This document shows positions 7,314-57,723 of a stretch of 64,000 bases of DNA, piece after piece. Origin of the DNA: Escherichia phage NHEP1; sequence record PQ511146.1. The stretch is one strand, 5' to 3'. A program made the translations under genes and the position numbers. The notes under the pieces were generated by a model. That model worked only from the letters and a program-made list of their open reading frames with translations. It was not told the DNA's origin and did no database searches. The first letter of the stretch is position 1; every line of letters begins with the position of its first letter.

Positions 7314-8067
7314 TAATTCTTCTCCTTACTGCAGGCTCGTTTGCTAAGAATACAGCTCTTGCCCAGCCACGTGGTGTAAGGCTTCGAATCATCTTCGTCC
7401 TTGCACTCTTTCCACCTAGCTTAGCGTGTTGCATGGAATAACCACTAACCGCATCAACTATTTGCGGGACAGGTTTTGTGGCGGGGATTATAAATCCATT
7501 GCCTATCCAACCGCAAGTTATTTTTGGGTAGGCATCACGTGGAGCTATAAATTCAGGAAACCATGGGTTTACATCATCCTCTGGTAAATACCCACCATAA
7601 TCCGAAGGATGAAAACGGTAATCAGGTTTTCGCCACAGTGTTGACATAACTCCTACAGGGTTCTCTACATGCCACGGGCAATCGTAAATCTCTCCCAACT
7701 CTTCTGCAACCCGAGCATCTTTCACAGCATTAATTTGGATCAGAGGATCCTTAGCCAGCTTTTTCTTAAAGTGTGCAGCTCCGGATACTGCTAAATGCGT
7801 GCACGGAGGAAATGCAAGAATAAAGTCTGGAGCCGGATACATGCAAAAAGTTTCTTGAGGGAACCATGGATCAATCCAATAATCCACATAGTGAATGTTA
7901 GGATGATCGGTTATCACCTCTACATAACTACCGTGGTCAGCACCTTCTGCATTAAAGCACAGGCACAGGTACCCAGCTTTTGCCCAGTCAATAACTGCAC
8001 CACCGGACCCGTCAAATAGACTCCACACGACACCTTTGTGGTAGTGTTCTTTGTAGATAAATTTCAA
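7303..8067 (-). CDS. DNA (cytosine-5)-methyltransferase-like protein
   Basis: Motif I SLFDGSGG (FxGxGG), motif IV-like FPPCTHLAVSG (PPC), motif VI HVENPVG (ENV) in canonical order; track start GTG at 8097 lies in a terminator hairpin, TTG at 8067 follows AGGAGA SD (start uncertain). Confidence 0.5.
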   Translation of the reverse strand: MKFIYKEHYHKGVVWSLFDGSGGAVIDWAKAGYLCLCFNAEGADHGSYVEVITDHPNIHYVDYWIDPWFPQETFCMYPAPDFILAFPPCTHLAVSGAAHFKKKLAKDPLIQINAVKDARVAEELGEIYDCPWHVENPVGVMSTLWRKPDYRFHPSDYGGYLPEDDVNPWFPEFIAPRDAYPKITCGWIGNGFIIPATKPVPQIVDAVSGYSMQHAKLGGKSARTKMIRSLTPRGWARAVFLANEPAVRRRINGQ

Positions 8068-20440: not shown

Positions 20441-21430
20441 ATGAATCTTGAAAAATATTATACACCAGAAGAGTTAGAGCGCTTGCTCAAAAAATACAGA
20501 CGCAAACAGAATAACGCACGGAAACGGGATATAGAGTTCAACCTGTCATGGGAAGAATATCTCCTATTTGGTAAAAAACTTTTAGGAGAGGGAGTATGCG
20601 ACTATACCCTTATACCTTTCGACATGCACACAGATGAAAACGGACTGGGAAATCCTTTCTACCCATCTCTGGAGCGGATAGATGATGAAGGTCCTTATGC
20701 GGTTGACAATTGTTGTGTGGTGGGATTGAGATGCAACTCCCTAAAGGACTGCCTGGTAGATAAAAAGACCGCAGTCTTGATTAAAGACAAAACTGATCGA
20801 AAAATTGTCCAGCAGATGATGCTCCACCTGAGCGAAGAGCGTATGGAGAAATTGAAAGGTGATTACACTTTTGAAGATTTCATCTTGCAATATGGAACGG
20901 AAGAGGATAAACTAGCACTCTTTGACGAAGAATGGGAGGAAGATATGTCACCGATGCAGGATTTTAAAAACTTCATGGCTAATCGTGGAGCCAACAAGCA
21001 CATTTCTGACATTGTAAACGAGCCTGTAGTAGAGGAGATTGGAGAGATGACGCAACAGGCTTACGAAGAGGAAAAAGAGCCTCAAGTGGTCGAAGAAGAG
21101 CTTACAGAAGAGGTTCCTGCACTGCCTGACGATGTTGAGATTGCCAAAGCTTACACTTTCTATTGCCAGACGTTCTACGATGCAGGTATGAAAGTTGATC
21201 TGTCATTCAGCCAGTTTAAGAGCACATACATTCGAAAATGTTGTGCTTTAACTGGTGAACGTCTCGGTGCCGGACTTAAACCCCTATTAGTTACCGACTG
21301 GAACAAAGGTTTCACCAAAGGTAACTTCATGGTAGTATCTCCAATCATGGAGAAGGCTATGACAGACCTTATGAAGACCACTCGCATGACAATGACCGAG
21401 TTGGCTGGTATTTTCAAGCACGTTAAATAA
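20441..21430 (+). CDS. hypothetical acidic protein with two related Cys-containing segments
   Basis: Track ORF starts at TTG inside the promoter -35; first ATG is 20441; acidic linker EEEKEPQVVEEELTEEVP. Confidence 0.55.
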   Translation: MNLEKYYTPEELERLLKKYRRKQNNARKRDIEFNLSWEEYLLFGKKLLGEGVCDYTLIPFDMHTDENGLGNPFYPSLERIDDEGPYAVDNCCVVGLRCNSLKDCLVDKKTAVLIKDKTDRKIVQQMMLHLSEERMEKLKGDYTFEDFILQYGTEEDKLALFDEEWEEDMSPMQDFKNFMANRGANKHISDIVNEPVVEEIGEMTQQAYEEEKEPQVVEEELTEEVPALPDDVEIAKAYTFYCQTFYDAGMKVDLSFSQFKSTYIRKCCALTGERLGAGLKPLLVTDWNKGFTKGNFMVVSPIMEKAMTDLMKTTRMTMTELAGIFKHVK

Positions 21431-21435
21431 TGACA

Positions 21436-21450
21436 GGGGCCATTGGCCCC
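21436..21450 (+). other. intergenic hairpin GGGGCC-ATT-GGCCCC (possible weak terminator/attenuator)
   Basis: Perfect 6-bp GC stem between stop at 21430 and next start; weak U-tract. Confidence 0.4.
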
Positions 21451-21463
21451 TTCTGGAGTTTTA

Positions 21464-22924
21464 ATGGATAGCAGAAGTTCAGAAATCATTACCGCACAAA
21501 AAGATGATGCCTTGCGAATGCTGCAGGCCGCTCGCATGTACCTTCTTGAAAAGCTGCCGTTTTATGGCACACTGTTGTCAGGGTTGCAGTTCGTAGAAAA
21601 CCACACATGGTGCTCCACTATGGCAACAGACCATAAACGCATCTACTACAGCCCTGAGTTCATTATGGGGTTGGCAGATGAGCGTAAAACCATTCTTAAA
21701 GCATCTCTGACTGACAAGCAGTTTGAGATGGCTGAAGTTTTCTATTCCCCAAAATCTGTGAAAGAGGTGGCCTTTCTTCTGTCACATGAGGTGGGGCATA
21801 TTATCTGTGATCATCTGGTCCGTGGTAAAAGCTTTGAGCCGGAACTGTTCAATATTGCTTGTGATCACGTTATCAACACAGGTCTTGTGGTTGACTTTAG
21901 CAAGCCTCCTTGTGTTTTCTTCCCGAAGGGGAAAAGCACTGAGTTCGTAAAAGGTAAGCCTTTTGGCTTCTTAGCTAATTGCTACTGCGACATGAAGTTT
22001 CATGGATGGATTGCGGAGAACGTCTATGCAGTTCTTGATAAACAAAGAGATCAGAATGGCGGTAAAAGTAAGAACGGTAAAGGTGAGAACTCCCAAGGAG
22101 ATAAACGACAAACCGATGATCACATGAGCGGGAACGGTGGCACTAGTGATGATCTTGGAAAGGCTATGGGGTATGATCAGCCGCAACCAGTAATCAGTCA
22201 ATCGGATAAAGATCAGGCCATGCAGGACTCTGGTGACATGTTGGAAGCAGCAATGCAAGCTTCAGGAGGTCGTTGCCCCGAGGCGGTGCGCGAGTTTGTC
22301 AAAAACAGAGGCAAGCCTGTAATCAATTATATAGATATTATTAAGCAACGTATGTTATCTAAAAGAAAGGCTGAGTTAACCTACAGAAAACCTGGTCGCC
22401 GATCTGGGTCTTTGACCACCACAATGCGAAAAGTTGGAGCTATAAACAAGAATCAACACGTTATTGTTCCTGGTCGTAATCCGGAAAACACTATAGATAT
22501 TGTAGTGGCTTTAGACGTTTCTGGGTCGATCTCACAAAGAACTTTAAAGAAAATGTTCAATGAGATCACCGGGTTGTGCAATTTGTATAAAGAGTTTAAG
22601 GTTACGATGTTCTGTTGGTCAACCGAGGTTGGAGAGGTTAAAGTATACACTCGCGGTAACATCGATGAGATGATCAACTATGAGGTCCACTCAACATGGG
22701 GCACAACAGCCGCCTGCGTGTTCGAGTATCTTGATGCTAACATACCGAATGCAAAAGATGTCATCGTCCTTACCGACCTCTACTTTGAGCATAACTTTGA
22801 ACAAAAGGCTGTTGACAACAAGTGGAAAAAGTACGATACTTTATGGGTTCTCACCGAAGGGTATAATAAAAATTATATCCCGAGCTTTGGGAAAACTGTG
22901 GAATTAATCGAGTACGCTAAGTAA
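21464..22924 (+). CDS. metallopeptidase-like (HExxH) + von Willebrand factor A domain protein
   Basis: 486 aa; LLSHEVGHIICDH motif; C-terminal MIDAS-like VALDVSGSIS; track TTG start replaced by ATG after GGAG SD. Confidence 0.7.
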   Translation: MDSRSSEIITAQKDDALRMLQAARMYLLEKLPFYGTLLSGLQFVENHTWCSTMATDHKRIYYSPEFIMGLADERKTILKASLTDKQFEMAEVFYSPKSVKEVAFLLSHEVGHIICDHLVRGKSFEPELFNIACDHVINTGLVVDFSKPPCVFFPKGKSTEFVKGKPFGFLANCYCDMKFHGWIAENVYAVLDKQRDQNGGKSKNGKGENSQGDKRQTDDHMSGNGGTSDDLGKAMGYDQPQPVISQSDKDQAMQDSGDMLEAAMQASGGRCPEAVREFVKNRGKPVINYIDIIKQRMLSKRKAELTYRKPGRRSGSLTTTMRKVGAINKNQHVIVPGRNPENTIDIVVALDVSGSISQRTLKKMFNEITGLCNLYKEFKVTMFCWSTEVGEVKVYTRGNIDEMINYEVHSTWGTTAACVFEYLDANIPNAKDVIVLTDLYFEHNFEQKAVDNKWKKYDTLWVLTEGYNKNYIPSFGKTVELIEYAK

Positions 22925-22939
22925 GAGAGGATGGTATTT

Positions 22940-23197
22940 ATGGCAACAGAGGTAGTAATTAAAGCTGAACGCCCAGTTAAAAAAGCTATCAACACGTTCC
23001 CTGTAGGAACCATTGTGAGCATGATTACAGAGTCAGGCCGTGTATCTACACTGCTAATCGTGAAATCTGCATGCTCATCTTGTGTGTGGGCATACGATCT
23101 TGACGAGAAAGAACTGAAAGATTTTGTCGGGGAGCTGAAAGCAACAGAGCTTGACGCTCGTATCGAAGTATTTGGTGAAACTATGAAGGAAGAGTAA
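22940..23197 (+). CDS. hypothetical protein
   Basis: 85 aa; second ATG chosen for SD spacing. Confidence 0.5.
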   Translation: MATEVVIKAERPVKKAINTFPVGTIVSMITESGRVSTLLIVKSACSSCVWAYDLDEKELKDFVGELKATELDARIEVFGETMKEE

Positions 23198-23460
23198 TGA
23201 CTACAAAAATCACTATTGCAGAACCGAAAGCTAACACGCAACCTATCGAAAAGTTTAAATGCGGCGAGGTGGTAACATTTACACCAGATAATGAAGATGC
23301 TAAGATTTTTGCCATGGTAACAGCCGAGTGGATGTGTGACAATACCACACAGGTGCTGCGTTTTGACACCTATCTTACAGATGAAATCAGGAACGACAAG
23401 ATCGTGACTGGTGTGGATACTGAGATCATTTTCTACAAGAGCTTTTTAGAGGGTTTCTGA
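23197..23460 (+). CDS. hypothetical protein
   Basis: 87 aa; start overlaps upstream stop. Confidence 0.5.
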   Translation: MTTKITIAEPKANTQPIEKFKCGEVVTFTPDNEDAKIFAMVTAEWMCDNTTQVLRFDTYLTDEIRNDKIVTGVDTEIIFYKSFLEGF

Positions 23461-38008: not shown

Positions 38009-40081
38009 TTATGAGAAGTCTGGCGGAACAACATCTTCTACATACCCTTTCAGAGCAACCTGTCCCATATGCAGAACAGTAGAATCTCTGGCGGTAACAG
38101 TGATGCTGTCAGACATTACTTGCGGGTATGCCCACACATACTGTTTTACCTCAGGGTATCTATACTCTATGGTTGCCATGTTTCCGCAGATACATCTCCA
38201 TAAAAATTCTTGGTAATTCCTGGTTGGGTCGTAGCCATATACCGGAGCAAGCTCTTTGCTAGGAACGAACCCTGCAAGGTATTGTATTTCAGACGGTTGC
38301 CAACCTAACTTAACGATAGGTATGTTTACAGACTCTTTTGCCTTTTCAATACCGCCCTGCATCACCCAATCGTAGCACTCGGTGCAGAAGAAATCAAGAG
38401 CGCCTGCTTCCTTTTTATATTGGTCGGCAAGGTTCAGTTTTTGCGTAAGCTCGGTTTCCATAATGGTCGGGAAAAACAGCAAAGCTGTCATCTGAGCCGA
38501 TGCAGCATGTGCTTTTATTGCCTTTGAAATAGCTGCAATACGAGCTCCAAGCTTACCACGACAAAATGCTACATACTTGTCATAAACACCGCCAGTTTTA
38601 GGATCGTCAATAGTCCCAATGTCTAGTGCATATTCACCAGTCTCATCATAAAACGCCTGCTTTGTAGGGTAGTCATAAATACAAGGCTTACGAGTATCGG
38701 TATTGAACCACCACCACGGTTCACCAATCTGCATAATCACTGGCAGGTTGTTTCTCATAGCGGCTGATGCAAAATTCTTAAATACTGCAGTAAGGAAATT
38801 CATACCCTCTTCAATGGTTGGAGACAGGAGGTAACTACAAGGCGTATAGCCTGTTTTAGCATAGTTATCGTTCCAGTCTCTCTGGGTCCATTCCAACGGA
38901 CAGGCATCGCTATAAAGCTCAAAGCTTACAGACTGCATAACGTCGAAGTCATGTCGTTTGGCATTGTACATAAAATCATCATGCCATTTATAAGCTGCAG
39001 CGTTTAGAGCTCCTGTTTTGTTTATAGACCATTGGGTTCCTGACCATGTGTAGTCATAATAATGGCTCATACCAACATAATGGTTTATGGTTCCTGTATA
39101 GCCCAGACGCTTGATATTACTCAACACCCTTAAAGGGGATACGTTCCACATATCGTCATATGCTGTGCAGATCCCAACATCGTGTTCTTTCACCTGAATA
39201 TTGTTAAGTTGCATCATTTTCCAGCCTGTGTCCGGCTGAAGAAGATCTAGACGCAACTCACACTCTACATTTTCCGTTCTCGGGTCTGTGCTATTACCTA
39301 CCCAATCTTTAGGCATAAGTGGTATTAGAATCCTTCTCACCTGCCGGGGATCAACACCCATCATGTTGTTGTTCTGGTCCATCCCGACGCAGTCCTCGAA
39401 ATCAATATGAATTTCTGCAACATTCTTATCCTCTGAGATGCTGACAGCATATTGAGCTAAAGGAACATAGATGATTGTACCATCAACAAGGTCTACAGTC
39501 ATAATCATCTTTTCAGGGGTGGAGAAGTTGCTGGCATTGGTTATTGACATTCTGAACCAAAGCTTGGTGTTTCTCATCTCGTAGTGATCATCAAATCCAA
39601 TGCCGAAATGGTCATACTTGTCAACTGTTTCCCAAATGCACCCAGCCATGCCCCCATATGTTCTTGACACTAAACGATTAATACAGCAGTTATTATCCGC
39701 AACAATACAGGTGCTTTCAGTCTGCTGTGTGGTTGTAACCCAGTATCTTGGGTGAAACATTCTCTCCTCAACGGTATCCCAAGATATTCTGTCAAGATTT
39801 TCATCTGAAACTATTGTACATTTCGCTCTTTGTGTTCCAATCATAACCCCTTGGGAGTTTGATGAAAACTCCATAAAGAAGCTCCTTGGCAACCTGTTTG
39901 GCAATTTGTCAACAATTTCTACAGGGATCTCGATACTGGTTGCCCCAACCGGGATAGTTACATCGCCCTCAACATGATCATAATCCCTACCCGGAACTGC
40001 AGTATCCTGAACTGTGCGGTAATGAAACCGTGCAGCCATTGTAGAGTAATCACGGTAAGGTTTAAAAACAGCTGTTGCCAT
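38009..40081 (-). CDS. baseplate/fibre-associated structural protein with N-terminal Calx-beta-like segment
   Basis: 690 aa; DYDHVEGDVTIPVGATSIEIPVEIVDK; positioned after baseplate J/I-like genes. Confidence 0.45.
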   Translation of the reverse strand: MATAVFKPYRDYSTMAARFHYRTVQDTAVPGRDYDHVEGDVTIPVGATSIEIPVEIVDKLPNRLPRSFFMEFSSNSQGVMIGTQRAKCTIVSDENLDRISWDTVEERMFHPRYWVTTTQQTESTCIVADNNCCINRLVSRTYGGMAGCIWETVDKYDHFGIGFDDHYEMRNTKLWFRMSITNASNFSTPEKMIMTVDLVDGTIIYVPLAQYAVSISEDKNVAEIHIDFEDCVGMDQNNNMMGVDPRQVRRILIPLMPKDWVGNSTDPRTENVECELRLDLLQPDTGWKMMQLNNIQVKEHDVGICTAYDDMWNVSPLRVLSNIKRLGYTGTINHYVGMSHYYDYTWSGTQWSINKTGALNAAAYKWHDDFMYNAKRHDFDVMQSVSFELYSDACPLEWTQRDWNDNYAKTGYTPCSYLLSPTIEEGMNFLTAVFKNFASAAMRNNLPVIMQIGEPWWWFNTDTRKPCIYDYPTKQAFYDETGEYALDIGTIDDPKTGGVYDKYVAFCRGKLGARIAAISKAIKAHAASAQMTALLFFPTIMETELTQKLNLADQYKKEAGALDFFCTECYDWVMQGGIEKAKESVNIPIVKLGWQPSEIQYLAGFVPSKELAPVYGYDPTRNYQEFLWRCICGNMATIEYRYPEVKQYVWAYPQVMSDSITVTARDSTVLHMGQVALKGYVEDVVPPDFS

Positions 40082-48187: not shown

Positions 48188-51100
48188 TTACTTCAGTTTC
48201 TCTTGCAGCCCAGTAACAACCTCTGTCAATTTTTTAACCTGTTCCTCAAGGGCGGTTATTTTATCATCCTGTTCCCTACAAACTTGGACAAGCAAGCCTG
48301 TCACAGCTGCGTAATCCACGCTGTAGAATCTTTCCTCTGTTATCAAAGGAGTTCCATCTTGCGTGGGATCAGGAGCCTCTTTCCTTTGCACGAAAGATCC
48401 AACCGCTTCAGGTAATGCTTCCATAACCTCTTGAGCAATTACCCCTGCGTAAGGCATACCATTCTCTTTTAAAGTGTAGGTATAGCCATTCATCTTCCGG
48501 ATAGCTTCTAACGCGTTAGGAATAACTTCTATGTTATCCTTCAGGTCGCGGTCAGAGTTTTGGTTCACGGATACACAGTTTACTGCACCGTTTACAGAAA
48601 GATATCTTGATTTATCCGGCAAGGTACCACAATGCCATACCCAATTTGCTTGAGAATCGTCAAGAACCTTAAACTCCAACACGTTTGGACGATTTCCTGT
48701 GCTGCCGTTGCCCCAATAGTGCATATGAGCGCTATTCGCAGGCATGTTGCCACCGTTATTAGTGACATGGCTTCCAGAAATATATACCTTTAACTCTGGG
48801 GTCGGTATTTCCCCTTCTGGGGTTGTTCCTCCATACCTGAAGCTAACACCGTTACCGCCTGTTTGGGTCCACGGTCCCCAAGTAAAGACCTGCTTCACCA
48901 TATTCCCATAACGTATAAATCTATCGCCGTGATAGGTAATATACTCTTGAACACACCCATTACCGTTATTGGCGTTATTTTGTAACACAATGAGTGTCCC
49001 GGCCTCATTTACGGGATAATGACGATCATTTGTTGCATCATTATTTGCAGGCTGATGGTAAATACCCTCCCACAATCCGTGATAGGTATTAAGGTCTGAA
49101 GTACCAAGGCCTTGACCCCTGTGCTGCATGGCCTTATTCCAGGGGTGATGATTACCACCTTCTATAGACCTGGTGTATAAGTTACTTTGTCTGCCAGCAA
49201 TCTGGAAAGCGTAGTTTCCTGAGAATCCTACAGATAAGCCACCTACAACCATGGTGTCTTGTGGACCGTTAACATTACCAGCTATTATTTTTGACGGGTT
49301 GTTAGGCCCGAACTGGTTGTTCCAGTCTGCACCAGTATGACATACAAAACCACCAGGAGCTGAGAAAGTACCGTCCTTGTTGAAGTTGTAGAATCTATGA
49401 GCTGTGCCTACCACATCACGAACAATAACTTGACCAGCCTCTGGGGTGGATCTGAACTCTGCCTGTCCTTGCAGTCTTGCACCATTACCACATTTAGAGG
49501 TAAAGGTGTTGTTGATCAGATCCTCTGTTCCTTCCGATGCAGCTTGGAACCCTGCGTTAGAGAACAGTGCTTTCCTGGTGGTTTGGCTACCTGGACAAAT
49601 GTAGTTAAGACCATTATACCACATCTCTACAGGAGGCATCTCTGTCTTACTCATCAGAACCATTCTGTCAGGTGTGCCTATATAGTGCCAGCCTGCGCCA
49701 CCCCCAGTATAGAACCCTGATGTTCCCTTGAACTCAGCAAGAGGTCTGGTGTTTGTTACATCATCACCTTTAATTGCAAGACTTAAATTATCTGATGCAA
49801 GAGGGGCGCAAAACTTGACACCATCTTGGTTGTTAGTTACATTCCCTACCTGCCAGTCATTTTCTCTGGTAAATACCTCAAGAACGTTTCTGCTTGCGTA
49901 GATACTAACAGGGAAAGCACGCGCCTCAACATAGAATGCAACATACTCCTGCTTTCCTCTGGTTGGAGCTATGCACCCAAGAATTGCTTTCTCGTTTTGG
50001 TAGAAATTAATAACACCTTGGAAAGAATCCCCCCTATCCGTCCAGCCACCAGTTCTGTAGTGACACTGCAAGGTAGCACAGTTCATAGGGTCATTTCCAG
50101 ATGAAGATCTGGTGACTATAGTAATATCCGTACCTGTCGAAGGGGCGTAATACGGATCTGTTCTAACGATGATTGGGTAGTATTTCCCATCTTCCATCCC
50201 TGCGGTTCTTGGCAGTGTTAAGAAATCTTTTACACCTGCTGCTACAGGAACTCTAAACATATTCTGAGCTTCTGCCAGAGTTGTAACCCCAGTACCACCT
50301 GCTGCCTGAGGTAAAGGTTCCCACTTGGCCTTCCGGTTGTTATAAACACCCCATTCCAGAGTACCATTACCGGATTCATCCATCCCTCCATCCCAGATTA
50401 CCATTTTTGCGGCTTTCTTGGATCCCCAGAACCCTCTTTCTGCTCCTGAACTACGGATCCATTCTCCGAGTCCCCAGTTTGTCAGCTGACCAGTAAGATC
50501 CCCAACCTGCATGTATTTAGGACAGTCTAATACGCCGTCTTCGCGGAAACCTAAATATCTATGGGTTTCAGATCCTTTTGCACCTTTGTGTAGGTGGATT
50601 GTTAACCACGCCTTATTGTCGTTTCTTACCTCGGAATAGATCCTATACCCATGCTCAAGGACACCGTCAGCACTGTATTTGTCCCCGTGAACAATGCCAG
50701 ATGCCGACTTGACATCAGCAGAGCTTTGAGACAGGTAAAGGTGCCCGAAGGTAGGAGAATTCCTAGACCCAAGACCTATGTGCGATCTAAAGGTCTCATC
50801 GTTACGAGGTCTGACCATCGGCTGCCATGCAGTCCACTGGTTTGTGTTGGCCTGATAAGTTCTCAAATACCAAACATCTACGTTAGAGAATGGGTAGTAT
50901 TCCTGACGACAGCCTGTGCCGCCGTTAGCATTGTTCTGCCAAACAATTAGGTGACCCGCACCAGAACCTGCAGGGTAACCATTTGCCTCAGTTGCATTAG
51001 CAGTCATCGGCTGGTAGTATACACCATCCTGATTACCAGTCAAGTTATTGATATTGAAATTTGCCTCAAGGGCTGCACGTTGCTTATAGAAAGCCCCTAA

Positions 51101-52006
51101 GTTAATGCGTGCACCTGCGGCATCTTTGGCCCCTGTACCACCCTGCTCTATAGCAAGAGGTTGCCACGAAGCTGTTTGTTGGTTCCACATACCCCAACGG
51201 CCTGTTGCATCAAGCTGCAAGTACCCTGCCGTGTTTAAATCATCTCCGGCACGGATAACTGTTCTTGTTGGGTTGTTTGCCTCCAGGCGTTTAAATTCGT
51301 CACGAAGTGCTATTCTTTTTGTTGTTGCTACACCGTTGGTTACTGCAATGGTATACATGGCTCCAGAGGTAGCGCCACGGAAAATGCCATCAACAGTTGT
51401 AGTATCACGACGAGATACCACACCGTTCAGAAATTTTTCACCAGCTGCTTCAGAAGGGTAGTTAGTAGTTCTTCCCTCTTCAATAACTGCAGGACCAACA
51501 AAGTTGACAAGGTGAATAACATCACCTACAGTATGCACTGTACCAAAATCTACCCGCTGTGCAAGTGCTTTAGCATCGTTGGCTGTCTGAACAGTAACAT
51601 CCATTACATCCTGGACAGACTGCCCTTCGGCTGTCATGATCATAGATGCGCCAATGGTAGATTCTAGCTCCTCCCTTAGGGACGGGTCAGTATATACCAT
51701 CCACGCAGCGTCAGTAATCCCACCGTCAGAATATGGTGAAGACAGTGCAGGGACAGTGTGTGGAAATTCGCCTTTCCAACGCAGGTATAGATCTTCCTCT
51801 TCGAAGTAGGCAAAATCCATTGGGCCGTTTAACTTACCACCTTCCTTAAAGGAGATTACATGAGAAACAGTCCCATCCACATGGACAACATCGCCAATTT
51901 TTACACGACGGGTCAGGTCTGGTTGTTGAACAACCAGGTAATCATCCTCTGTCACTGCGGTAGTGGCAGGAAGAGATTCAATTCTGACAACTTTAATATC
52001 AGCCAT
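48188..52006 (-). CDS. long tail fibre / tailspike with C-terminal intramolecular chaperone (Peptidase_S74-like) domain
   Basis: 1272 aa; C-terminus SDRDLKDNIEVIPNALEAIRKMNGYTYTLKENGMPYAGVIAQEV then coiled coil; N-terminal 120 aa homologous to 54641..55309. Confidence 0.7.
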   Translation of the reverse strand: MADIKVVRIESLPATTAVTEDDYLVVQQPDLTRRVKIGDVVHVDGTVSHVISFKEGGKLNGPMDFAYFEEEDLYLRWKGEFPHTVPALSSPYSDGGITDAAWMVYTDPSLREELESTIGASMIMTAEGQSVQDVMDVTVQTANDAKALAQRVDFGTVHTVGDVIHLVNFVGPAVIEEGRTTNYPSEAAGEKFLNGVVSRRDTTTVDGIFRGATSGAMYTIAVTNGVATTKRIALRDEFKRLEANNPTRTVIRAGDDLNTAGYLQLDATGRWGMWNQQTASWQPLAIEQGGTGAKDAAGARINLGAFYKQRAALEANFNINNLTGNQDGVYYQPMTANATEANGYPAGSGAGHLIVWQNNANGGTGCRQEYYPFSNVDVWYLRTYQANTNQWTAWQPMVRPRNDETFRSHIGLGSRNSPTFGHLYLSQSSADVKSASGIVHGDKYSADGVLEHGYRIYSEVRNDNKAWLTIHLHKGAKGSETHRYLGFREDGVLDCPKYMQVGDLTGQLTNWGLGEWIRSSGAERGFWGSKKAAKMVIWDGGMDESGNGTLEWGVYNNRKAKWEPLPQAAGGTGVTTLAEAQNMFRVPVAAGVKDFLTLPRTAGMEDGKYYPIIVRTDPYYAPSTGTDITIVTRSSSGNDPMNCATLQCHYRTGGWTDRGDSFQGVINFYQNEKAILGCIAPTRGKQEYVAFYVEARAFPVSIYASRNVLEVFTRENDWQVGNVTNNQDGVKFCAPLASDNLSLAIKGDDVTNTRPLAEFKGTSGFYTGGGAGWHYIGTPDRMVLMSKTEMPPVEMWYNGLNYICPGSQTTRKALFSNAGFQAASEGTEDLINNTFTSKCGNGARLQGQAEFRSTPEAGQVIVRDVVGTAHRFYNFNKDGTFSAPGGFVCHTGADWNNQFGPNNPSKIIAGNVNGPQDTMVVGGLSVGFSGNYAFQIAGRQSNLYTRSIEGGNHHPWNKAMQHRGQGLGTSDLNTYHGLWEGIYHQPANNDATNDRHYPVNEAGTLIVLQNNANNGNGCVQEYITYHGDRFIRYGNMVKQVFTWGPWTQTGGNGVSFRYGGTTPEGEIPTPELKVYISGSHVTNNGGNMPANSAHMHYWGNGSTGNRPNVLEFKVLDDSQANWVWHCGTLPDKSRYLSVNGAVNCVSVNQNSDRDLKDNIEVIPNALEAIRKMNGYTYTLKENGMPYAGVIAQEVMEALPEAVGSFVQRKEAPDPTQDGTPLITEERFYSVDYAAVTGLLVQVCREQDDKITALEEQVKKLTEVVTGLQEKLK

Positions 52007-52011
52007 TCTTT

Positions 52012-52036
52012 CTCCTGAAAGGGGGCAAACAGCCCC
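52012..52036 (-). other. intergenic hairpin GGGGGC-UGUUU-GCCCCC immediately upstream of fibre gene SD (weak terminator/attenuator)
   Basis: 6-bp GC stem between stop of 52042..54639 and AGGAGAAAGA SD of 48188..52006; short UUUC tail. Confidence 0.4.
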
Positions 52037-52041
52037 CTATG

Positions 52042-54639
52042 TTAAAGGTACAATCCACGGTATTGAGCATAAAGTCCCAGACCGCGAAGGATTTCGCCAG
52101 AGTGATAGCCTACCGGATCAGAAACTGCCCAGCAGCCGTTTAAAACATTATCCCCGTTAATGAAGTGGTGCTTTTGCAGTAACTTCATACAGGCTTCTAC
52201 AACAATATCTATTTGAGGTATTGTCTCTGAATACCCGCAAAGACCTAGCCAGCAGCAACCTGCAAGCCATTCACCTACCACCCACATCCTGTCTCCTCTG
52301 TCCTGATAAGAGTATCCTCCAGAGGTGTTAAAGTCTGTAGGTAGATTTCCTGAATGAGATGACTGGAATCTGTTGAGGAACCATGCCCATTTCTGGCAGA
52401 ACAGGAACAGTCTTTCATCAACAGGTTCTTTATGTTTCTTGAGCTCATATATTGTGCGGCACGCAGCAACAAAAGATCTTGACTGGAGCTTAGAGTTATC
52501 TACCATCTCCCACCAACCAGTCAACCCTTCATTACCTCTTTGCCATACATAACGTGAGGCAACTGGACCCTCTGTCTTAAATGTATTATTATACCAGACT
52601 TGAGAGTCGTACAGAAAGCCTATTGTATTTGACAATCTATGGCGATCTATGTTTTCTGCACCCATGCAGTAGACTGCTGGGTATTGCATGCCAGGGTAGG
52701 GCCAATTTGGCTTTTCCTCTAAGAGATAGTTTTCCTTATCTATCACCTTCCCAGCAGGGAACACACCAGGAGTGTGTCTGTATGCTCCTTGCTTGTAGTT
52801 TCTGACATAGCAATCACCAACCTTGGCGGTTGATTCTGTCTTGCTTGCCATCCATACACTAAACCAGATCAGATAAGCATCCCTATCTGCAACATAAAAT
52901 TGCGGCAGCGTGTTGACGCAATACAGATCGAACAAGCCATTGCCTATCTGCCTGTCGCTCAGACTGAAATCTACAGAGGTAATTCCTTTAGGGTTAGCAA
53001 AGAAAGGTTTAATCTCATCTTCTGTGTGATGAGGTTGTGTTGGGTCTAGTTTAAAATCGCCCAGGGTAAGAGTTTCTGTTATCCATTGCCCGTTAGTAGC
53101 ATATAGATCAGCATACCATAACCAACGGTCTTTGTCAAGAAATTTGACCCTTACCATCTCATCATCTGACCGATAAGTCACTGAGTTTAAAGAAATCTCT
53201 CTTCCAAAATTGAAAGTTACCTTGCCTCTTACTATGTTGCAACGGGTGAAGTTGTCAGAGTGGTTGTAAATGTCGGTATCATACTGCATACTGACACTCG
53301 CGCCACCGCTTACGGTAATGTTTTCCTCTTTTGGCAAGAGATACGGGTTACCGTCTTTACCAACCACCTCCACGAAATCGGTGACCTTGGCAACTGTCTC
53401 TGTTACCTCTGACCCTCCAAAAGGGACCCCTATCCTATACTGTTTTTTGTTATTGTTGCCATCATTAAGGATGAAATGTGGCTGAAACAGAACCCCTTCT
53501 CCTCCGAAATTCATAACAATTTCAGCATCTCTGCCTATTTTGTATGTAATCCCTTTTTGGATTATTTCGCAAGGCTGGCGTGCGTTCATTCTAAAATTGA
53601 TATATCCGTCACTATCCCTACTCATGACAGGTACTGTTCCTGCAACTAGACAGGTGCCATCTGTGAACGGAGCCTTAATCAACGTGGTCTTTCTAAACAG
53701 TTTGTCGTAGGCATTTATATCACTGAAATTAAGCAGCTTGTTGTAAGATTGCTTAAACGCTGTGTAATACTTTTCCTCACCTGTCAAGGTATAGAGTTGA
53801 TAACAAGCGTCACACCACATTTCTTCCCCGTCCAACTCTGGGGCTTGATTGTCTGCAACCACGTTTATAGGATTTACAATTACAGGGGATCCAGCAGGTA
53901 TCACCGATCCACCCTGCTCTTGTGGCAATCTCACACAGTAGGTTACCTTGTGGCTGCCTGTAACACCCTTATCCTGCAGTTGGATTGTGCCGAACTCTGC
54001 AGACGTATGACCACTATCGGCTATGCTACCATTGGCCCAATAGCGGTTACCATCCCATGCTATATACCACTCAACCCACCAACTTAATCCAGATGTTGTC
54101 CAATTTGGGTTAGCATCTGTGCCGCCGTAAACATCAGAGTCTACAGTGTTTCTTCCTAGCACACCGTTATACGCTTGGAATGCCTTGTCTAAGTATTCTC
54201 CCCATGTCGGGGATCCAGCTGGGATTTTTCCTCTACCATTGGTGAAAGACACCACTACATCTTTAAACCCACCATGTGATGGAACCCCATCTGTGGATAA
54301 CGGGTAGTGGGACAATCTTTGCATTTTACTTTCTACTGCATATACGCCCAGAAGATGACTGTTGTAGGCTTCCCAAGCCTCTTTGGCCCTATCTAGATAA
54401 AAATCGCTTTTTGATGCCCTGTATGCCTCAATGTACCCCAGAATCAACACAGCCTGAGCTTCATGCATTGCCCAATCATTATTTATCTTACTCCCTGACC
54501 AACCTGACGCTATAAGTCCATCCTGGTTTACCAGTTTGTTCTGCGTGGGGAGATTGGTAATGCCTGTGTTGTTATCGAGGCACTTCCTGTGCCCCTCAAT
54601 CATCTGAAATACGTTATCAATGTTGTGTTGAATACGCAT
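52042..54639 (-). CDS. putative tail-associated polysaccharide-degrading enzyme (alpha/alpha-toroid-like, speculative)
   Basis: 865 aa; aromatic/Trp-rich helical segments at both ends with beta-rich middle; own AGGAG SD inside the end of the upstream gene; start 1 nt after upstream stop. Confidence 0.35.
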   Translation of the reverse strand: MRIQHNIDNVFQMIEGHRKCLDNNTGITNLPTQNKLVNQDGLIASGWSGSKINNDWAMHEAQAVLILGYIEAYRASKSDFYLDRAKEAWEAYNSHLLGVYAVESKMQRLSHYPLSTDGVPSHGGFKDVVVSFTNGRGKIPAGSPTWGEYLDKAFQAYNGVLGRNTVDSDVYGGTDANPNWTTSGLSWWVEWYIAWDGNRYWANGSIADSGHTSAEFGTIQLQDKGVTGSHKVTYCVRLPQEQGGSVIPAGSPVIVNPINVVADNQAPELDGEEMWCDACYQLYTLTGEEKYYTAFKQSYNKLLNFSDINAYDKLFRKTTLIKAPFTDGTCLVAGTVPVMSRDSDGYINFRMNARQPCEIIQKGITYKIGRDAEIVMNFGGEGVLFQPHFILNDGNNNKKQYRIGVPFGGSEVTETVAKVTDFVEVVGKDGNPYLLPKEENITVSGGASVSMQYDTDIYNHSDNFTRCNIVRGKVTFNFGREISLNSVTYRSDDEMVRVKFLDKDRWLWYADLYATNGQWITETLTLGDFKLDPTQPHHTEDEIKPFFANPKGITSVDFSLSDRQIGNGLFDLYCVNTLPQFYVADRDAYLIWFSVWMASKTESTAKVGDCYVRNYKQGAYRHTPGVFPAGKVIDKENYLLEEKPNWPYPGMQYPAVYCMGAENIDRHRLSNTIGFLYDSQVWYNNTFKTEGPVASRYVWQRGNEGLTGWWEMVDNSKLQSRSFVAACRTIYELKKHKEPVDERLFLFCQKWAWFLNRFQSSHSGNLPTDFNTSGGYSYQDRGDRMWVVGEWLAGCCWLGLCGYSETIPQIDIVVEACMKLLQKHHFINGDNVLNGCWAVSDPVGYHSGEILRGLGLYAQYRGLYL

Positions 54640-54640
54640 C

Positions 54641-55309
54641 TTAGATAGCTCCTGCTATAATCAGTGCCCCGTACCAAGTTAGCCCGTTGTCGTAGGTTTC
54701 TAACTTGAAAATATCTGTTGCACCAGCTGTAAATGTTAGGATAGGATCTCTTCCGTATGCCCATTTAACATTATCAGGCCAATAGACTTTGTTACCGCCA
54801 GAGGTCTGAGTAATGCATACGGTTATAGTTCTCGCTACCCCTTCAAGACCTTCTGTCTGATTTTCAAAAGAGATTGTGGTATTTGAAGTTAGTCGAACTT
54901 TAAAAGTGTCCGCAACTTCAAGATCCATATCAAGCTGACCACCAATAGATCCGTAATCAACTATTCTGCCAGAAGAAGTTGCAGCAAGCTCCCCAAAAAC
55001 AGACCAGGCTTTTGCAGACACACCCCCAGCACCCTCTACAGTAGAGTCTGGGAGGATTATTTTAGGGTAATCCCCGTTCCACGTGTAGTATCGCTTGGTC
55101 TCTGGGTCATAAGCAAAGTCCTTCTTGCTCTTAAGATAACCGCCCTCTGTGAAATAAACTATTTTAGTAATGCTAAGATCATTGACAACATCATCAATCT
55201 TAGCCTTTCTTGTCCCGTCAGTCTGGTTGACAACCAAGAAGTCATCACTCAAGACTGTTTCTGCATCTTCAAGATCTGGGATTGGTATTGTAGGATAAGC
55301 TACAGCCAT
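54641..55309 (-). CDS. tail fibre N-terminal anchor-domain protein (adapter)
   Basis: 222 aa; DDFLVVNQTDGTRKAKIDDVV...FTEGGYLKSKKDFAY aligns with N-terminus of 48188..52006 (DDYLVVQQPDLTRRVKIGDVV...FKEGGKLNGPMDFAY). Confidence 0.55.
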   Translation of the reverse strand: MAVAYPTIPIPDLEDAETVLSDDFLVVNQTDGTRKAKIDDVVNDLSITKIVYFTEGGYLKSKKDFAYDPETKRYYTWNGDYPKIILPDSTVEGAGGVSAKAWSVFGELAATSSGRIVDYGSIGGQLDMDLEVADTFKVRLTSNTTISFENQTEGLEGVARTITVCITQTSGGNKVYWPDNVKWAYGRDPILTFTAGATDIFKLETYDNGLTWYGALIIAGAI

Positions 55310-56047: not shown

Positions 56048-56725
56048 TTAGTGCGGTCCACTTGTCTCGCCATCAGGGCAAGAGTGGGTATGACCTTTAT
56101 ATTCTGCATAGAATGAGTCCAAATCCACACCAGCAGCCGTTATAATTCTACCAGACGGGTCTACTGTTGCACCATTCATTCTAATATTCCCATCCACAGC
56201 AGCTCGTAAGTTGGCAGCTCCGTTAGTGAAAGAAAACTCCCCACTACTGTCGCACCGTAATGTCCCGCCAGGTGTTTGAAGCTCAAAATCACCAGAAGGT
56301 GTCAGCTTAAAATAAACCCTATCATTCCATAACTCCACATTATCAGGATCGATCTGCAAAGCGTTCGAGTCTGAATGAACAGAGGTTATTGCCCACCCTG
56401 GAAACAGACCGTGAGTTTGTTGATCGTCGTTATTGTTTTCATTTCTCTCTGAAAACTGCAACCCTACAACATCGCCAGCCTTAATAGGGAGTGTTAACCT
56501 TGCCTTCCCACTGTTTGCAGACATCACCTGGATCGGAACGTCATAAATAAGAGGGTATCTCTCAACATCCCCGTCATCAAACGTGGTTTCAGCTATTGGC
56601 TGTACTGCTGCGGAGGGGATACTGTAATCTACACTGACAACTCTGGCCCTGATACTGGTGTGGTAGTCCCTCATTATTTTTTCTATAAAGGATCTTACAG
56701 CAGCATCTTTCCTATTTATTGCCAT
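56048..56725 (-). CDS. baseplate central spike, gpV/gp5-like
   Basis: 225 aa; C-terminal KGHTHSCPDGETSGPH with HxH metal-binding-type apex motif; adjacent to gp25-like gene. Confidence 0.55.
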   Translation of the reverse strand: MAINRKDAAVRSFIEKIMRDYHTSIRARVVSVDYSIPSAAVQPIAETTFDDGDVERYPLIYDVPIQVMSANSGKARLTLPIKAGDVVGLQFSERNENNNDDQQTHGLFPGWAITSVHSDSNALQIDPDNVELWNDRVYFKLTPSGDFELQTPGGTLRCDSSGEFSFTNGAANLRAAVDGNIRMNGATVDPSGRIITAAGVDLDSFYAEYKGHTHSCPDGETSGPH

Positions 56726-57723
56726 TATACCTCCTCAGTTTTGTCAACAACTCCACCCACTGTTTCCCCAAGGCCAAGCTCTGTAGTGTAATCACCACCT
56801 TCTATGGTGCCCTTATGATGGACTGTGATCACCTTATAGAAGCCTGTGTATTGCCTGCTTTTAAGATAAATGGTGGACTCTGGGAGGATCGCCCCGTTAA
56901 GACATGTGGTTACAGTAAGACCAACATCCTCTCTCGGGTTTTTCTTTTTCTTACTTGTGCCACCTTTCGCAGCAGCTTTAGCTTTTCGTTTTTTAGCAGG
57001 TTCTGGGTTTTTAGGTGTGGGTGATCCGTGCATCCCAGACTCTGCACTTATTTCAAATACAGAGTCCTTGAACCTTTTTCCAACCTTGGTCCAATATAGA
57101 GCACCGTCCTGAACGCTGAATGTTGAGTTTGTCAGCCTTGCAAACCTGCGGAGGTTCTCTGCAGTGTTCCCAGAGAAAGCCATAGAGTATTGTAAAGTCT
57201 GGTTTCCAAAACCAACAACCCTACCTTTTGGCAAGTTCATATCCTTCAGCAGGTCATTAAGCACAGAGTTCAGAGGTGTGCCCTTCTGATAAGACCTTGT
57301 GCTTTGGCACTTAATGATGTTCTCAGTGCCATCCCCAAAGATGAACTTAGTTTTTCTGGTCGGACCTTCCCATCTGTCCTCAACAAACTCTACAGTTCCG
57401 GAGAATATCAACTGGTTCTCATTATCATAGCCAGCCTCAAACATAACTGCAAGAGCATCAGCTTGATGCATATCCAGATAGTTAACTGTATCGTCAGACA
57501 GGTTGTAAACTGTCACATAGCCTTTGTTTGGCTCTTTGGTATTGTCCTTTTGTATGTCAAACTCGATATTGGCAGCACCAGTGTCCGAGCTAATCTCATA
57601 AACTCCGGAATCACTCTCTCCTTTCTTTTCAACAGATTTTGGGATATTGGTTTTTGATTTACCGCCATGCTCTACAGGACGACCAAATAATAATCGCCAT
57701 GTTCTACGTCTGTACTCTGCCAT
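56725..57723 (-). CDS. tail/baseplate protein (hub-like position), hypothetical
   Basis: 332 aa; Lys-rich segment PEPAKKRKAKAAAKGGTSKKKKNPR; between tape measure and spike. Confidence 0.35.
   Translation of the reverse strand: MAEYRRRTWRLLFGRPVEHGGKSKTNIPKSVEKKGESDSGVYEISSDTGAANIEFDIQKDNTKEPNKGYVTVYNLSDDTVNYLDMHQADALAVMFEAGYDNENQLIFSGTVEFVEDRWEGPTRKTKFIFGDGTENIIKCQSTRSYQKGTPLNSVLNDLLKDMNLPKGRVVGFGNQTLQYSMAFSGNTAENLRRFARLTNSTFSVQDGALYWTKVGKRFKDSVFEISAESGMHGSPTPKNPEPAKKRKAKAAAKGGTSKKKKNPREDVGLTVTTCLNGAILPESTIYLKSRQYTGFYKVITVHHKGTIEGGDYTTELGLGETVGGVVDKTEEV

Follow-up and report, generated by a model that had tools for sequence, protein, structure and literature searches.

A predicted split (alpha/alpha)6-barrel tail protein in Escherichia phage NHEP1 and its pairing with a small adapter gene

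Phages similar to rV5 are among the most commonly isolated coliphages of broad host range. Within the 64,000 nucleotides of Escherichia phage NHEP1 analysed here (PQ511146.1, referred to as the window), a gene for an 865-amino-acid (aa) tail protein raises the question of how a protein that lacks an attachment domain of its own is held on the virion, and whether it acts there as an enzyme. A preliminary description, made from the sequence alone, had suggested a hydrolase or lyase with an (alpha/alpha)-toroid, recruited as a depolymerase through a separate adapter. Taken as a whole, the reading that we favour, with a confidence a little above even, is that of an adapter-docked tail protein with a six-hairpin barrel that binds, and probably cleaves, a host surface polysaccharide.

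The list of open reading frames (ORFs) places the gene on the minus strand with an ATG start (see Table 1 for coordinates), and the plus-strand frame over the same interval is riddled with stops. Its DNA is 94-97% identical to that of more than 100 genomes of rV5/FV3-like phages, where the orthologues are annotated as 'tail protein', 'tail fiber protein' or 'hypothetical protein'. The ratio of nonsynonymous to synonymous substitution rates (dN/dS) against three orthologues was 0.026-0.035, which indicates strong purifying selection on the protein; since this low ratio is accompanied by so many close DNA matches, the gene is not a chance ORF. The encoded protein is rV5 gp42, the window being that of a Vequintavirus (rV5/FV3-like), and it is 97.8% identical to the protein of phage V5. 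It is a full-length member of the family of phi92 gp141, rV5 gp42, PVP-SE1 gp050 and S144 ORF17 (PHROG 2871): the PHROGs profile phrog_2871 ('tail protein') matched residues 1-863 with E=0, and phi92 gp141 (958 aa) aligned over the full length at 35% identity (927 columns, E=1e-176). This latter alignment starts at residue 2, which supports the assigned ATG.

A word-indexed homologue search, profile query included, returned no more than 5 clusters, and the diversity needed for the analysis was supplied by HMMER, run exhaustively against 1.84 billion cluster representatives (50%-identity library). This yielded 326 relatives, of which 124 had E<=1e-30. According to tblastn, the protein is present in 526 GenBank phage records. 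These comprise Vequintavirus, Phapecoctavirus (35% identity), 121Q-like and SPN3US-like jumbo phages, Rosemountvirus and Loughboroughvirus, as well as Ea21-4-like Erwinia phages, SU10-like and GAP227-like podophages and Vibrio phages. Members of the barrel family are 865-1000 aa long, with the Vequintavirus branch about 60-100 aa shorter than the rest of phrog_2871.

The structure of the protein was predicted with AlphaFold2 (AF2). The model obtained from a 51-sequence alignment had a predicted local distance difference test score (pLDDT) of 88.4 and a predicted template modelling score (pTM) of 0.84; an earlier model based on a 6-sequence alignment was poor (pLDDT 52.6) and was discarded. DSSP assigned helices to residues 2-23, 59-96, 269-305 and 656-864 and beta strands to residues 101-254 and 329-613 of the model, so that the helical ends and beta-rich centre proposed in the preliminary description are borne out. 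Its further remark that both termini are rich in Trp and other aromatic residues applies to the C-terminal helical part (W 5.0%, aromatics 15.5%), but not to the first 100 residues (W 3.0%, aromatics 10%), given 3.1% W in the whole protein. Roughly 306 helical residues of the model make up the alignment with six-hairpin enzymes, and the barrel is therefore built from three separated segments (residues ~1-100, ~266-320 and ~646-865). Judged from topology and by analogy, the two beta-rich insertions, which are located in long connections from an outer to an inner helix, would lie on what is the catalytic face of six-hairpin enzymes. Foldseek handles such a split barrel badly and picks up jelly-roll and galactose-binding-like matches in the beta parts, one stretch of which (residues 482-580) is matched by phrog_23426; fold matches in BFVD were to unannotated relatives only. 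Based on the model, we regard an (alpha/alpha)6 fold as close to certain, and the predicted barrel is that of the six-hairpin (alpha/alpha)6 superfamily, which makes the protein related in fold to carbohydrate-active enzymes, as the preliminary description had suggested.

While the fold claim is solid, membership of a particular glycoside hydrolase (GH) family is not, and here several observations weigh against the reading as a sugar-cleaving enzyme. The 865-aa protein had no match in Pfam (none at E<=0.1, which includes the GH8, GH76, GH105 and GH88 models), NCBIfam or a phmmer search of PDB sequences. Among 51 relatives, we saw two sub-threshold matches to Glyco_hydro_76 (best E=0.0034) and one weak match to GH127. 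Profile matches of the family in the PDB were all to six-hairpin proteins, but weak (E>=1e-3) and confined to one generic hairpin; the hairpin motif within residues 1-100 weakly matches GH76 and cellobiose 2-epimerase. Moreover, enzymes that do not hydrolyse, among them AGE-type epimerases and terpene cyclases, are built on this fold too. Compared with GH8 (CelA, CPF_2247), GH105/GH88 (YteR, UGL), the GH76 alpha-1,6-mannanases and the AGE/cellobiose 2-epimerases, identity is only 8-13%, the barrel is cut into three segments by beta insertions of ~165 and ~325 aa, no single family has catalytic residues with which those of the protein could be equated, and the protein is displayed on a virus tail.

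A rival idea is that of an enzyme other than a glycoside hydrolase, with an activity of the epimerase or isomerase type, or one associated with unsaturated-uronate hydrolases or lyases, that would modify the host glycan without depolymerising it. We consider this very unlikely. The sequence matches in question represent a single generic helix hairpin that aligns with two different hairpins in one and the same enzyme, and the conserved His pair typical of AGE enzymes is not evident, the His at position 786 of the family being Trp in the 865-aa protein. The substrates of GH105 and GH88 enzymes, in turn, are products of lyases, and no partner of this kind was recognised within the window. The 'lyase' option of the preliminary description likewise found no specific support, in contrast to the toroid fold named along with it.

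How such a protein could be attached is suggested by the gene upstream of it. Neither Pfam nor NCBIfam gave an anchor match for the 865-aa protein, the family profile starts at residue ~4, and 83 of the 120 full-length members of the family also begin directly with the barrel module; the absence of an N-terminal fibre anchor was hence correctly recognised at the outset, as was the start of the gene exactly 1 nt after the upstream stop codon. The AGGAG motif sits 9 nt 5' of the ATG, and a junction of this layout is plausibly compatible with coupled translation of the adapter and the barrel protein. A consensus scan detected no convincing sigma-70 promoter and no canonical terminator around the gene pair. 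The upstream gene, which encodes a 222-aa short fibre (rV5 gp43), had been described as anchor-only. It does have an anchor, Pfam Tail_spike_N at residues 51-104, but also a conserved C-terminal domain of ~90 aa (residues 128-219), termed connector here, with the motif Q-G-T-G-x-N-x-V-x-W-P...G-R-x-P-V-L...D-x-G-x-T-W-x-G. Over this domain, the adapter is 41% identical to phi92 gp140 (157 aa), and phi92 gp140 and gp141 show the same arrangement of adapter and barrel gene.

The pairing of connector and barrel turned out to be strict. We examined 77 loci for an upstream connector, four of which were without upstream sequence, and found the domain directly upstream of the barrel gene in all of the 73 that could be tested; ECO319P1 and a metagenomic SU10-like contig (L080) were two extra positives, giving 75/75. 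Among GenBank phage records, the connector is present in 525 and the barrel in 526, with almost identical counts per genus. The upstream proteins vary from 107 to 563 aa and carry the connector at their extreme C-terminus, whereas their N-terminal parts are mutually unrelated: we observed Tail_spike_N, prophage tail-fibre N, SPRY and, in ~30-kb siphophage-like elements, a domain similar to tail-tube proteins. The adapter of a Yersinia podophage, annotated as 'tail fiber protein', has an unrelated N-terminal part as well. The remaining 37 of the 120 full-length family members possess an N-terminal extension of their own. Two of these were viewed in their genomic context, and both were found without an adapter: one is a gpM-like fusion whose gene follows the tape-measure gene in a lambda-like tail operon and thus takes the position of gpM, and the other has an N-terminal extension of 276 aa. 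Pairing in the one case and self-anchored members without adapter in the other are the pattern expected if the small protein anchors and its C-terminal domain holds the barrel. The suggested recruitment through a separate adapter is well supported in this respect, and we consider adapter-mediated display of the barrel protein very probable. It has to be kept in mind, as a point that weakens the overall reading, that the docking of the barrel on the adapter, including its stoichiometry, is something we infer from genomics.

The barrel gene always follows immediately after a fibre-like gene whose product has a conserved C-terminal domain, and directly downstream of a fibre gene is the classical site of tail-fibre chaperones such as Mu gpU and T4 gp38. 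The 865-aa protein might accordingly serve mainly to assemble the upstream fibre or to brace it structurally, with no direct role towards host glycans. We give little credence to this explanation, the least probable of those considered here. Although the gene position is alike, size and fold of the protein differ from those of the Tfa chaperones, to which no match was found in Pfam, PHROGs or NCBIfam; proteins this long (865-1000 aa), with beta-sandwich domains and a full barrel of the enzyme type, do not suit such a function. In other phages, there is no upstream fibre and the barrel is fused straight to structural tail proteins. Finally, the proteins are abundant in virion mass spectrometry, with 25 peptides for S144 ORF17 (PMC7432712) and detection of rV5 gp42 (PMC3606486).

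For the connector domain, we obtained neither a Pfam match nor a credible sequence relative in the PDB; the only PDB match, to Rpb4, had E=0.026 and was treated as chance. In a cryo-electron microscopy study of phi92 from 2026, predicted gp140 was reported to resemble the trimeric capsid spike of Pa223, which ends in a C-terminal knob of ~90 aa with a TNF-like fold (PMC13450770; bioRxiv 10.1101/2025.06.11.659172). By analogy, this hints that the connector may be a trimeric knob. Fusions of connector and barrel into one polypeptide (Rosetta-stone proteins) were not seen among 154 proteins, except for a 293-aa metagenomic fragment, P0066, in which the first ~180 residues of the barrel family are followed by the connector (201-281), the reverse of the usual gene order. 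This fragment could have arisen by misassembly or could represent a rearranged variant.

Two further observations concern unusual carriers of the gene pair. In the IMG/VR contigs L011-L064 (~20-40 kb, siphophage-like elements), the adapter is a 563-aa protein (e.g. L012, 2313-4004). Over the first ~140 residues it is similar to a major tail (tube) protein, and its gene is located between the head genes and the true tail-tube gene. Because of this tube-like adapter and its position, the barrel may in these elements be carried by the tail tube or neck instead of a baseplate. Furthermore, ~20 GenBank records labelled 'Campylobacter phage' (e.g. MG065652, MG065666 and MG065672) contain a gene pair ~97% identical to that of E. 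coli Vequintaviruses, and others with the same label have one at Phapecoctavirus-like identity. The host labels of these records look doubtful.

Is the barrel of the Vequintavirus proteins then an active enzyme? Ten residues (E60, Q62, D270, R341, D502, Q652, Q680, W699, R721 and E849) are 83-98% conserved in 114 members from outside Vequintavirus, D502 being conserved at 90-95% in the family, and all ten are retained in the 865-aa protein. In the AF2 model, E60/Q62, D270, R721 and E849 are located at helix N-termini. The conserved residues would cluster in one pocket resembling an active site, although this placement is based on secondary-structure positions only and to that extent tempers our reading. 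A stronger objection is that the four Vequintavirus sequences depart from the family at 12 positions that are 77-96% conserved elsewhere (W100Y, N103E, W163R, W274M, Y622H, F629A, W643K, Y651M, W702G, D703N, W715N and H786W). An Asp-to-Asn exchange combined with the loss of six Trp residues would be the expected look of a sugar site that was inactivated or re-targeted. These replacements are the main reason to doubt that the clade keeps the ancestral activity or specificity. As the protein is tightly constrained according to its dN/dS, they point to re-targeting or conversion into a binder and not to decay.

It follows that the Vequintavirus barrel might be a non-catalytic, lectin-like receptor-binding head, that is, a former enzyme kept as a glycan-binding module, with fold and adapter unchanged. 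The replacement of ~12 polar and aromatic family positions in this clade only, including D703N, H786W and the six Trp residues, fits such a module, as does the failure to find the sequence signature of a CAZy family in Pfam; the strong purifying selection suits binding as well as catalysis. On the other hand, E60, D270, D502, E849, R341, R721, Q652 and Q680 are invariant in the clade, some of the aromatic changes resemble swaps between neighbours (e.g. W274M beside F275W), and the fusion of relatives to deacetylase-like and esterase domains suggests an enzymatic setting. We regard a lectin-like head as a possibility to be taken seriously, but as the less probable explanation. For true glycosidase activity in the Vequintavirus clade, taken by itself, we see the chances as about even; the activity implied by the term 'depolymerase' in the preliminary description, just as catalysis and substrate in general, is what we infer rather than observe.

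The presence of both proteins in the virion is taken from published work. The virion proteome of rV5 includes gp42 and gp43 (PMC3606486), and ORF16 and ORF17 of phage S144, the homologous pair, were both detected by electrospray ionisation tandem mass spectrometry (PMC7432712). The annotation of S144 ORF17 (980 aa) names it a homologue of phi92 gp141, and we found the connector domain in S144 ORF16 (206 aa; hhalign probability 99.8%). Elsewhere, family members are fused to Collar, Phage-tail_3 and Prophage_tail domains or to collagen repeats. Two independent members bear a C-terminal TIM-barrel module similar to the tail sheath N4 gp65, and one bears a GDSL esterase.

In the mechanism that we propose, the 865-aa protein would be a virion tail protein whose core is a six-hairpin (alpha/alpha)6 barrel as in glycoside hydrolases. 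Having no attachment domain, it would be made together with the 222-aa protein and most likely be docked on it. The Tail_spike_N domain of this short fibre would plug into the network of baseplate and fibres, in the same way as the N-terminus of the neighbouring 1272-aa fibre does, and its C-terminal domain of ~90 aa would act as the docking knob. Displayed in this manner, barrel and beta domains would attach to a conserved polysaccharide on the host surface and probably cleave it, which would help the phage to reach its receptor in the lipopolysaccharide (LPS) core.

As to the substrate, one candidate is the N4 glycan receptor (NGR), an exopolysaccharide containing N-acetylmannosamine (ManNAc) and the primary receptor of these phages. 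A deacetylase-like spike of the gp65 type has been linked to NGR (PMC8669472; bioRxiv 10.64898/2026.04.02.716166). In the window, gp65-like domains sit in a 690-aa protein (gp34 in rV5), a homologue of phi92 gp142 that shares with N4 gp65 a stretch of 59 aa at 36% identity, which had already been published. The 865-aa protein has none of them and did not resemble N4 gp65 in sequence comparisons (BLASTP E=0.19; hhalign probability 0.08%), and the spike recognising NGR is therefore a different protein; the gp65-type sheath or deacetylase-like protein (phi92 gp142, rV5 gp34) is a functional neighbour of the barrel and not a homologue. Fusion of the two modules recurs in the family, and in phi92 the gp65-like gene gp142 directly follows gp141, which makes a substrate shared by barrel and gp65-like spike a reasonable idea. 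Telling against the overall reading, NGR and the LPS core are the only host glycans that these phages are known to require on K-12 (PMC8594841, PMC8669472). We think it improbable that NGR is the substrate. Similarly doubtful is the more far-reaching proposal that the two-gene cassette moved among myo-, sipho- and podophages by swaps of nothing but the N-terminal anchor of the adapter and that the rV5/phi92-like barrel is an NGR glycanase working with the gp65-like, deacetylase-type spike.

We also considered the 865-aa gene as the 'sugar deacetylase' fibre component of the BASEL study, and rejected this assignment in view of the missing similarity to N4 gp65 and the location of the domain in the 690-aa protein. 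The legend to S5C Fig (PMC8594841) puts the 'sugar deacetylase' at ~position 8,000 of an alignment from gp49 to gp27, which by coordinate arithmetic is inside gp42. The deacetylase-like domain is actually in the gp34-like gene, at about position 21,400-23,400 of the same alignment, so the legend is probably imprecise.

Enzymes of adapter-mounted tailspikes are trimeric beta-helix or beta-propeller proteins that dock via N-terminal peptides or T4 gp10-like domains. Our system resembles those with gp37-type adapters in K1-5, K1E and SP6, TSP1-4 of CBA120 and gp66/gp63.1 of G7C in that an enzyme-like receptor-binding protein without anchor would be carried by a separate anchoring protein, with Pfam Tail_spike_N (TSP1/Gp66) as the anchor in our case. 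In contrast to them, the cargo is an (alpha/alpha)6 barrel and the presumed docking element is the distinct C-terminal domain of ~90 aa in the adapter. This 222-aa adapter also differs from phi92 gp140, which has only 157 aa and is without Tail_spike_N. With the alpha/alpha-toroid depolymerases of phages, the 865-aa protein shares the fold class, which is recognised but rare, accounting for <1% of depolymerase domains in a survey of Klebsiella prophages (PMC12491483).

The gene itself is a catalogued and highly conserved tail gene of the rV5 family that was earlier predicted to encode a glycosidase or hydrolase, and its novelty is low for this reason: phi92 gp141 is listed as 'glycosidase' in a review table citing the phi92 paper of 2012 (PMC5380687), and an HHpred prediction as hydrolase was noted for ORF17 by the S144 authors. 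In the literature and the PDB, we found no solved structure, activity assay or description of the connector-barrel pairing for this family. The present analysis adds the split architecture of the barrel, its remodelling in one clade and its almost perfect coupling to an adapter domain that is portable, and this portable cassette of adapter and barrel is of more interest than the gene as such. The finding that a ~90-aa connector follows exchangeable anchors and is strictly paired with the barrel, in about 525 phage genomes, suggests a ready-made plug with which receptor-binding modules could be engineered for different types of phage. With gp43 and gp42 assigned as one unit of adapter and enzyme-like protein, distinct from the NGR-binding, gp34-like spike, the model offers structural biologists something to fit into the baseplate density of a tail with multiple fibres, and biochemists gain a defined protein pair with E60, D270, E849 and D502 as candidate catalytic residues. 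Should the barrel of this clade prove to have no catalytic activity, it would clearly illustrate how an enzyme can become a lectin on a phage tail. If it is an NGR glycanase, it would be the first enzyme known to act on NGR and provide a handle on the structure of this polymer.

Table 1. Positions of the gene pair, its predicted domains and neighbouring features in the window, and figures from the comparison of the AF2 model with known six-hairpin proteins
Feature	Position	Strand	Remarks
865-aa tail protein gene	52042..54639	-	rV5 gp42 / FV3 ORF042 / phi92 gp141 family, phrog_2871; predicted split (alpha/alpha)6 barrel, two beta-rich insertions
First barrel segment, residues 1-100	54340..54639	-	Helices 2-23, 59-76, 79-96; conserved E60 and Q62 at helix N-terminus
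Beta-rich insertion 1, residues 101-265	53845..54339	-	Between outer and inner barrel helix; DSSP of model
Second barrel segment, residues 266-320	53680..53844	-	Helices 269-286, 289-305; D270 at helix N-terminus; family Trp 274 is Met
Central beta-sandwich region (insertion 2), residues 321-645	52705..53679	-	Conserved R341, D502; Foldseek: jelly-roll / galactose-binding-like
C-terminal barrel segment, residues 646-865	52045..52704	-	Helices 663-687, 717-735, 742-761, 782-800, 809-824, 844-864; Q652, Q680, W699, R721, E849 conserved; clade changes W702G, D703N, W715N, H786W
Gene junction	54637..54653	-	AGGAG 54653-54649, TAA 54643-54641, one base (G, 54640), ATG 54639-54637; read directly
222-aa adapter fibre gene	54641..55309	-	rV5 gp43 / phi92 gp140 family, phrog_7760
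Adapter virion anchor, residues ~1-110	54980..55309	-	Pfam Tail_spike_N, residues 51-104; resembles N-terminus of 1272-aa fibre
Adapter connector domain, residues 128-219 (~90 aa, C-terminal)	54653..54928	-	Always precedes barrel gene
Hairpin GGGGGC-tgttt-GCCCCC, then TTT	52018..52037	-	Between stop of 865-aa gene and AGGAGA/ATG of next fibre gene; read directly
1272-aa tail fibre (rV5 gp41-like)	48188..52006	-	Adapter-type N-terminal anchor; C-terminal Peptidase_S74 chaperone domain
690-aa gp65-like protein	38009-40081	-	Calx-beta, NCTSP_N, TIM-barrel_NCTSP (E=7.7e-80)
Central spike	56048-56725	-	Pfam PF18352, phage-protein N-terminal domain
Baseplate hub	56725-57723	-	
Model vs GH8-like CPF_2247			Table figure 29.1
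Model vs GH105			Table figure 28.5
Model vs YteR			Table figure 27.7
Model vs GH76 mannanases			Table figure 26-27
Model vs cellobiose 2-epimerase			Table figure 26.4
Model vs GH8 CelA			Table figure 26.0
Model vs GH88			Table figure 25.5

The genes for the central spike and the baseplate hub are located just upstream of the adapter gene. As the gene order (hub, spike, small protein, adapter, barrel) matches phi92 gp137-gp141, synteny is conserved between the two subfamilies. Downstream of the barrel gene follows the 1272-aa fibre, residues 6-143 of which are also matched by phrog_7760. The fibre and the 222-aa adapter share the same anchor type (Tail_spike_N), for which reason they may be rivals for baseplate docking sites or be seated at equivalent ones. 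The gap of 35 nt that separates the 865-aa gene from the gene of the 1272-aa fibre contains a G/C-rich hairpin. The consensus terminator scan did not call it, its T-run being too short, and it could be a weak terminator or an element that stabilises the mRNA.

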